Virus genome (UHGV): UHGV-0174779
Reading direction: 5' to 3' (one strand)
Source: a virus
DNA: 64,000 nucleotides
In this document: positions 44,022 through 44,810 of the stretch, one piece after another
Position numbering within the stretch: the first letter of the stretch is position 1
How the letters are laid out: the number at the start of each line of letters is the position of its first letter
Program-made: the position numbers and the translations under genes
The notes under the pieces: generated by a model
The model's database searches: none
Told to the model about the DNA's origin: nothing
What the model saw: the letters and a program-made list of their open reading frames with translations, nothing else

Positions 44022-44166
44022 ATGTAGGGTTGACCTACCTCTTTTAGAGAGTGCTCAAGGAAAGGCACTAGCCACTACGTTGGAGTGGTATCAGGACCAG
44101 TACACAGAATGTGCTGCTAATCACAATGGATTGTTAGAAGCTCTGAAAGAGCGTGGAATAGAATAA
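43906..44166 (+). CDS. o-spanin (Rz1-like lipoprotein) candidate, overlapping i-spanin 3' end
   Basis: Signal peptide with lipobox-like TSAC, Pro-containing periplasmic part; starts inside 43671-44021 in a different frame. Confidence 0.45.
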
Positions 44167-44810
44167 TGGCGAAGAAGACAACACCTACAAGATACCGCAT
44201 TCACGGAATCCCTATTAAGTATATCGCAAACTATGAAGAGTTTTACAGAGCGAACTGGAAAGTAGTTCACAAGTTCTTCATGTATGATATCAGAGATTAC
44301 CATGAAGCAGAAGATGTGGCACAGGAAGTGCTCTTGAACGCTTGGAGATTTGTCTTCGCTAAGCAGGATGAGAGAGTCCTAGAGGATGAGAAAGACCAAG
44401 AGCATATGACTTATCGAGTCAAGAATATTATCTGGTCTATACGTTCAAACAGGCAGACTGTAGGGGACCGTCGTATCTACTCAATTCCAGAGGCTGATAT
44501 GTTCCGTACCCCTGATATGGTGGACAGTCCTTTAGAGATTGCTATGGATAAACAAGACTCTGTTGGTGACCCATTCATGGAGTCTCGTATCTTCTATTTC
44601 TTCCAAGATTTAAGTGATACGATGGATACTCAGAAGTTAGCCAATATGTTCTCTATGATCTTCTTAGGAATACCTCATGACCATATTCAGAAAACTATTG
44701 GAATGTCACATGGAACATTTTATCGTCGATATGCAGAGTTAAAAGATCTGTATGAATATGTAGTAGAGAAGCATTTTGATAAAGAAGAACTTCGAGGATT
44801 GACAGCATGA
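44166..44810 (+). CDS. phage-encoded sigma-70-family (ECF-like) sigma factor
   Basis: Region-2-like [15 protein letters not shown] and region-4-like HTH ([22 protein letters not shown]). Confidence 0.6.

Follow-up and report, generated by a model that had tools for sequence, protein, structure and literature searches.

The 64,000-nucleotide stretch analysed here, UHGV virus genome UHGV-0174779 (the window), carries on its plus strand an ATG-initiated open reading frame (ORF) at 44166–44810, which encodes a protein of 214 amino acids, just as a first-pass annotation of the sequence had described. In a tblastn comparison this protein was 97.6% identical to phiEco32 gp36 (NC_010324 phi32_36) over 212 of its 214 residues, and the protein matched 71 records at 95–99% identity. 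A phmmer search of the Protein Data Bank (PDB) gave a single match, chain F of entry 9m7y, named 'RNA polymerase ECF sigma factor' (E = 3e-142); this entry is the cryo-electron microscopy (cryo-EM) open complex that E. coli RNA polymerase (RNAP) forms with gp36, gp79 and the promoter P68 (Xu et al. 2025; PMC12276001). The protein also matched PHROG 1740, 'RNA polymerase sigma factor' (E = 1e-44). The window protein is an orthologue of gp36 and belongs to the Kuravirus/Gordonclarkvirinae family of phage sigma factors.

The window protein and phiEco32 gp36 differ by five substitutions in 212 residues (S21A, K28R, V29A, F209L and Q210R), and all 20 published contact residues, with the roles assigned to them in PMC12276001, are kept. 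They comprise the contacts to the clamp helices (D44, E47, E49, D50 and E54), to the −10 region (E79, H80, Y83, R84, W90, S91, S94 and N95), to the flap-tip helix (M138, I142, F166, L167 and F204) and to the −35 region (Y186 and R187). Thirteen of the 20 are invariant in an alignment of the 19-cluster family, in which identity goes down to 48%. The phiEco32 protein was co-purified with RNAP from infected cells, and its holoenzyme initiates in vitro at P26 and P68 (PMC12276001); given the 97.6% identity, the window protein would be expected to bind core RNAP and to initiate at promoters in the same way.

We then considered the genome in which the gene lies. Megablast of positions 43000–46000 returned 99 phage records, all of them Escherichia/Shigella podoviruses of the phiEco32 group, and the best DNA match, to Escherichia phage LAMP (MG673519.1), ran at 92.5% in a single piece. 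The portal protein matched Pfam 'SU10_portal' (E = 1e-171), and IMG/VR yielded only four related contigs. The window belongs to a LAMP-like Kuravirus genome and, set against phiEco32, is reverse-complemented and circularly permuted; its ends fall within the scaffold gene and a tailspike gene, and its gene blocks are given in Table 1. It also encodes an orthologue of gp79, which in phiEco32 inhibits both the sigma70 and the sigmaS holoenzyme while co-activating that of gp36 (PMC12276001). The first-pass proposal that the phage redirects the host RNAP with a sigma factor of its own, in the manner of phiEco32-like phages, is supported by this Kuravirus setting and by the identities of the two orthologues (97.6% for gp36 and 98.8% for gp79).

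The promoter element of phiEco32 gp36, tAATGTAtA, lies 6–8 bp upstream of the start site (PMC8948821) and precedes genes 6, 13, 26, 40, 58 and 68, six published promoters whose variants have been tabulated (PMC8948821 supplement). The window holds four exact copies of TAATGTATA against 0.64 expected, and at least four copies were seen in none of 100 shuffles. Three of the four stand upstream of the orthologues of genes 58, 40 and 26, and the one-mismatch copies upstream of the gene 6 and gene 68 orthologues are phiEco32's own tabulated variants. The position of P13 falls outside the window, and five of the six known gp36 promoters lie within it. When one mismatch was allowed, the count was 22 sites against 20.7 expected, with no enrichment; because this count is at the chance level, only exact copies and position are informative. 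The claim that other intergenic regions carry a conserved motif different from that of the early promoters was thus borne out, with P6, P26, P40, P58 and P68 all at syntenic positions.

Individual sites share further features with their published counterparts. P68, the promoter in the cryo-EM open complex, is placed 40 bp upstream of gene 68's orthologue (34136..34465), and its upstream block includes −37G and −34A, the two bases touched by the gp36 C-terminal domain (PMC12276001). With AATGTA numbered −14 to −9, an A occupies −34 in all six sites of the window, namely these five and an additional minus-strand site, considered below, and a G occupies −37 in P68, in P6 and in the additional site. 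P6 has TTGGGAG at −39 to −33, and its g variant is the one tabulated for phiEco32 P6. The P58 site is also found in ECBP2, E20-1 and KBNP1711, the P40 element is invariant in phiEco32, ECBP2, Bas86 and E20-1, and P26 has served as a late promoter in vitro (PMC12276001).

A second class of promoters is of the sigma70 type. Sites matching the sigma70 consensus at 11 or more of 12 positions number five in the window against 1.5 expected, and three of them, at 7759, 10042 (a perfect 12/12) and 10218, stand on the plus strand between 7759 and 10246, where the early block begins. The description of the early promoters as sigma70-like, which the first-pass annotation had offered, thus holds. The overall number of sigma70-like sites is at the chance level, and only the top-scoring ones are enriched and clustered. 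The sites in the spacer at 9895..10246 read TTGACA-16-TAAGAT, TTGACA-16-TATAAT (12/12) and TTGACA-17-CATAAT (11/12), and perfect TTGACA also occurs at 8082, 8312 and 9895. 'Three promoters in the spacer' have been reported for SU10 and phiEco32 (PMC4281155), as at 9895..10246. Another perfect consensus, TTGACA-17-TATAAT, occurs at 39474..39502 (+), some 30 bp past the GTG annotated as the start of the ORF for DNA polymerase (39447..41291); the polymerase may start further downstream, or the site may be an internal or middle-region sigma70 promoter.

Table 1. Positions of the genes, gene blocks and promoter-like sites discussed in the text, numbered as in the window
Feature	Position	Strand	Description
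Sigma factor gene, phiEco32 gene 36 orthologue	44166..44810	+	ORF, ATG start, 214 aa
gp79 orthologue, 82 aa	27615..27863	+	tblastn 98.8% identity over 82 aa; PHROG 8339
Block holding the sigma gene, early and middle genes	~7.8–46.7 kb	+	Minus-strand blocks on either side
Portal and terminase	1157–5002	-	Window layout
Ejection, tail and lysis genes	46906–64000	-	Window layout
gp26 orthologue, largest ORF	46906..51258 as listed	-	1450 aa; listed start is an ATG inside the P26 element
Early promoter candidate	7759..7787	+	TTGACA-17-TATATT (11/12); head of rightward early cluster
Three early promoter candidates	9895..10246	+	Sigma70-type motifs in a 1.6-kb ORF-poor spacer
P68-type middle promoter	34064..34096	+	TTGGTAGTAGAT(AT) at −39..−26 and −10 element AAATGTATA (34088)
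P58-type middle promoter	38340..38348	+	Exact TAATGTATA, upstream of gene 58 orthologue (38385..38702)
P40-type middle promoter	42799..42807	+	Exact TAATGTATA, 60 bp upstream of gene 40 orthologue (42867..43613)
P26-type late promoter	51252..51260	-	Exact TAATGTATA, between gene 25 and gene 26 orthologues
P6-type late promoter	5557..5565	-	TAATGTAGA, upstream of gene 6 orthologue (5072..5545) and the terminase/portal block
Candidate seventh gp36-type promoter	42727..42759	-	TTGGTAGTAGAT-N12-TAATGTATA, in the 430-bp intergenic region 42439..42866
Terminator-like hairpin	43635..43658	+	AGCCACCTTCGGGTGGCT then T6; directly after gene 40, between P40 and the spanin/sigma genes
Weak sigma70-like site	43906..43934	+	ATGAGA-17-TATAAT; located in the spanin gene; the sigma gene follows 230 bp downstream

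We regard it as close to certain that the gene encodes the Kuravirus gp36 sigma factor, which together with gp79 reprograms the host RNAP, and that no phage RNAP is needed or encoded. This reading draws on the orthology, the conserved contact residues, the partner gene and both promoter classes with their positions, all of which are present in the window, and on published experiments with the phiEco32 orthologue for RNAP binding, promoter specificity, temporal classes and the mechanism of gp79 (PMC12276001, PMC8948821, PMC4281155). Early in infection, the host sigma70 holoenzyme would transcribe the rightward early block from the near-consensus promoters at about 7.7–10.3 kb. Once gp36 and gp79 had been made, gp79 would bind the RNAP clamp, insert its N-terminus into the RNA exit channel, displace sigma4 and thereby shut off sigma70 and sigmaS transcription. 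gp36 would replace sigma70 on the core enzyme, its N-terminal domain resting on the clamp helices while the flap-tip helix is bound by the C-terminal one. The sigma2-like N-terminal domain would read the −10 element AATGTA (centred at −11.5), while the sigma4-like C-terminal domain, stabilised by gp79, would touch −37G and −34A. The resulting gp36 holoenzyme would transcribe the middle genes (from P68, P58 and P40) and the late genes (from P26, P6 and, outside the window, P13).

Several observations weigh against this reading. The experiments concern phiEco32, and we infer the same biochemistry in this phage from the 97.6%-identical orthologue; the published model leaves the source of the first gp36 in this phage unexplained; and about 5–6 kb of the genome lies outside the window, the RNAP search having covered the window ORFs. 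The profile scores of the sigma protein are also low. Pfam Sigma70_r2 matched residues 24–62 at 19.6 bits (E = 7.8e-4), under its gathering score of 24, and neither Sigma70_r4 nor Sigma70_r4_2 matched at E ≤ 10 in Pfam. The first-pass annotation had noted region 2 and region 4 signatures and had suggested a search with these models; the region 2 signature is there at a sub-threshold level, and the region 4 signature was overstated, with no match to a region 4 model. With NCBIfam TIGR02937 (sigma70-ECF superfamily), whose cut-off is 42.9 bits, the score was 24.7 (E = 1.5e-5), and a profile of the family run against the PDB found ECF sigmas at E values of 0.05–1.8 only, over residues 21–61 only.

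Given that part of the genome lies outside the window, a phage RNAP could be imagined there, or hidden in the gp26 orthologue by analogy with the N4 vRNAP, in which case the sigma factor would control only part of transcription; we consider this very improbable. The orthologues of gp26 and gp25 have no Pfam match and fall only into PHROGs of unassigned function (PHROG 14629 for gp26), gp26 has no sequence relative in the PDB, and SU10 gp24, the gp26 orthologue, counts among five proteins that leave the head by ejection (PMC9509320), like the N4 vRNAP. Yet the gp26 orthologue, which probably starts at the ATG at 51213, following AAGGAG, and would then have about 1435 residues, is rich in Ala, Glu, Lys and Arg and contains none of the catalytic motifs DxDxD, DFDGD or HD[ST][FYW]-type. 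At the level of sequence we therefore rejected it as a cryptic RNAP: it has neither a Pfam or PDB match nor catalytic motifs, and its SU10 counterpart is an ejection protein.

The other evidence also speaks against a phage RNAP. No RNAP family was found by Pfam in the 19 ORFs of at least 300 amino acids, nor among the 25 families listed for the 64 coding-strand ORFs of 70–299 amino acids, where five further, weaker families had E values of about 2e-4 to 1e-3, Sigma70_r2 being one of them. The absence of a single-subunit RNAP from the 64 kb, as claimed before, thus stands for 83 coding-strand ORFs (19 plus 64), as far as profile searches see and among the matches listed. The early promoters are of the sigma70 consensus; in phiEco32 the counterpart of what the window lacks contains only genes for the head and a tail fibre (the remainder of the scaffold gene, the genes for the major head protein and the Ig-domain protein, gp13 and a tail fibre); and phiEco32-like phages have no RNAP according to the SU10 paper (PMC4281155). 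Two RefSeq names required attention. The 'RNA polymerase' phi32_50 is a 42-residue ORF whose name is an artefact, its orthologue at 41357..41482 (+) belonging to PHROG 1312, of unassigned function, and having no Pfam or RNAP match. The 'polymerase' phi32_127, an 87-residue ORF, is likewise a naming artefact and has no orthologue in the window.

As for the identity of the protein as a sigma factor, the decisive evidence is its likeness to a characterised protein, and the sequence signal is weak. gp36 itself has been called a distant sigma homologue, with region 4 homology undetectable by sequence (PMC8948821), and the sigma4-like fold of its C-terminal domain was revealed by the cryo-EM structure alone (PMC12276001). 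Within the sigma70 family, the gp36-type protein is a highly divergent member with two domains. The TIGR02937 alignment forms one stretch, residues 23–192, that covers both domains. The family is narrow, with 19 clusters among 5.8 billion proteins, none of which has a precomputed Pfam domain. When its profile was run against 1.84 billion representatives, 12 were found at E ≤ 1e-3, and the weak tail consisted of genuine ECF sigmas (with Sigma70_r2, r4_2 and Sigma70_ECF) at E values of 2e-4 to 9e-4, among them P0026, P0029 and P0030 at 2.8e-4 to 9e-4; one of these matches covers residues 23–195. Among the relatives, P0020 barely passes Sigma70_r2 (24.8 bits), and a region 4 match (E = 0.003) came from the distant relative P0021 only. 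The label 'ECF' for the window protein is loose because all curated ECF/sigma70 cut-offs are missed. Profile scans of the 83 window ORFs showed no anti-sigma family among the matches listed. That the protein is instead an ordinary helix-turn-helix (HTH) regulator, a repressor or activator whose weak sigma matches reflect chance or generic HTH similarity, might be suggested by scores under every curated cut-off, by one source's label of 'uncharacterized protein YerC' for a homologue and by a weak profile match to a multi-HTH protein (P0024), but is barely conceivable in view of an orthologue that co-purified with RNAP, forms a holoenzyme active at P26 and P68 and is seen in a cryo-EM open complex (PMC12276001; PDB 9m7y), and of a family profile that recovers genuine ECF sigmas.

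Taking the protein as the gp36 sigma factor, we return to the question of its first synthesis. The predicted sigma70 promoter of the phiEco32 sigma gene, TGGACA-18-TATAAT, lies inside gene 37, 22 bp upstream of gene 36. In the window, gene 37 (macro/Appr-1-p domain) is precisely absent at 44160..44170, in comparison with L001 (5538..6001), and the ATGGC of gene 37 is fused with the ATGGC of gene 36, a microhomology at the deletion junction. The promoter is missing here because gene 37 has been deleted, and the ATG of the sigma gene overlaps by a single base the TAA that closes the o-spanin gene upstream of it (TAATG). The terminator-like hairpin that follows gene 40 is also present in phiEco32, and the weak site at 43906, identical in phiEco32, is the sole sigma70-like site remaining between this terminator and the sigma gene. 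Since the gene 37 promoter is lost and a strong hairpin follows gene 40, initial sigma synthesis would have to rely either on read-through or on the weak, conserved 43906 site. Where phiEco32 has gene 35, with a GTP-binding domain, and gene 34, for a dNMP kinase, the window has an ORF of 89 amino acids (44807..45076, +) directly downstream of the sigma gene. This ORF is DUF3310/kinase C-terminal-like and covers only the C-terminal half of kinase PHROGs (phrog_26149, residues 89–176 of 176), and it has the look of either a remnant or a DUF3310-type domain that stands alone.

Compared with phiEco32, the window has the same sigma protein bar the five substitutions, the same gp79, the promoter element at the same gene positions, the same layout of early sigma70 promoters and the same divergent gene-block architecture. 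By contrast, it lacks gene 37 with its promoter, its sigma ATG runs into the o-spanin stop, the 89-residue ORF stands in for genes 35 and 34, and its genome is smaller, LAMP-like and about 68–70 kb in size. LAMP shares these local features: its gp36 is already annotated as 'putative RNA polymerase ECF sigma factor', its gene order, gp40-gp39-gp38-gp36-gp33.1-gp33, is identical, genes 37, 35 and 34 are absent, and the ATG/stop arrangement is the same, whereas its nucleotide sequence diverges from the window by about 7.5%. Salmonella phage 7-11 gp47 is likewise a divergent phage sigma factor that brings the core RNAP of E. coli/Salmonella to late promoters, in a genome of similar layout, but it is only about 15% identical to gp36, reads a bipartite GTAAtg-N16-aCTA element and has detectable region 4 homology, and phage 7-11 lacks a gp79 homologue, host shut-off and a middle class (PMC8948821).

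Bacterial ECF sigmas (group 4: SigK, SigW, SigL and RpoE) resemble the gp36-type protein in their sigma2-linker-sigma4 arrangement, in their length of about 200 amino acids and in a weak region 2.1–2.2 profile similarity. Their usual promoters are of the −35 'AAC'/−10 'CGT' type, whereas the gp36 promoter has the A/T-rich AATGTA at −10 and upstream contacts at −37G and −34A only. Also unlike the bacterial factors, the gp36-type protein misses the curated ECF/sigma70 cut-offs, has no region 4 sequence match and has no anti-sigma partner, its partner being the co-activator gp79, which also displaces host sigma4. At the structural level, the first helix of gp36 is rotated by about 70 degrees, and its sigma4-like domain has a more compact form and a short helix 4 (PMC12276001). 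An analogy drawn by the authors of PMC12276001 is with T4 AsiA/MotA, where a small phage protein disables sigma4-dependent transcription of host and early genes and a second one gives a new promoter specificity; T4, however, retains and remodels host sigma70, whereas in the phiEco32-type switch the phage sigma factor replaces it.

The fourth exact copy of TAATGTATA, at 42727 on the minus strand, lies 72 bp from P40, diverges from it and is antisense to genes 41 and beyond. A 14-nt block, TTGGTAGTAGATAT, is identical at −39 to −26 of this site and of P68, and the bipartite pattern TTGGTAGTAGAT-N12-TAATGTATA occurs exactly twice in the window, in P68 and here, against 0 expected. The bipartite site recurs in place, with a variable spacer, in phiEco32, LAMP, NJ01, ECBP2, Bas86 and E20-1, which represent two genera; in the relatives L005 and L008 the full pattern was unmatched, and both keep a minus-strand TAATGTATA in the same interval. 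The site is absent from the six published gp36 promoters (PMC8948821 supplement), and a literature search for Kuravirus transcription start sites or antisense data found nothing. We put forward the copy at 42727..42759 as a putative seventh gp36-dependent promoter, an assignment that this conservation and the block shared with P68 make possible, though on balance doubtful. If it is genuine, transcription from it would yield a leftward RNA, non-coding or antisense, that runs through a structured element at 42524..42640, and this RNA would perhaps regulate genes 41 and beyond or prime a replication origin.

The element at 42524..42640, between genes 41 and 40, is itself highly conserved. It consists of a 10-bp stem, AATAGAGAAT/ATTCTCTATT, around a hairpin, followed by T5 on the plus strand and then by the hairpin GCAGG-N5-CCTGC. 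Its RNA fold z-scores are −3.3 on the plus strand and −2.3 on the minus strand, and it has no match in Rfam. The element may be a plus-strand terminator, an antisense non-coding RNA or an origin.

Two further features lie away from the sigma gene. A tRNA-like sequence at 15723..15801 (+) scored 30.2 bits, just over the Rfam gathering score of 29, but ARAGORN did not call it. The T-arm is all that it has in common with phiEco32 tRNA-Arg; its apparent anticodon loop is CTTCTAA (UCU), its D region is odd, and it contains a long extra segment. At 62470..63906 (−), in the position of phiEco32 gp15, lies a 478-residue pectate-lyase/beta-helix tailspike. Since this gene has no close DNA match among 50,697 phage records, it is a swapped receptor-binding module.

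The finding of a sigma switch in this phage is correct but already known. The gp36/gp79 switch was described in 2008 (Savalia) and 2012 (Pavlova), both as given in PMC12276001, and was structurally solved by cryo-EM in 2025. The value of the analysis is a correct annotation, that of a Kuravirus with a sigma factor, gp79, five of the six known gp36 promoters and sigma70 early promoters. Two small leads might refine the published circuit: a conserved candidate for an antisense promoter, and the natural loss of the sigma gene's sigma70 promoter.

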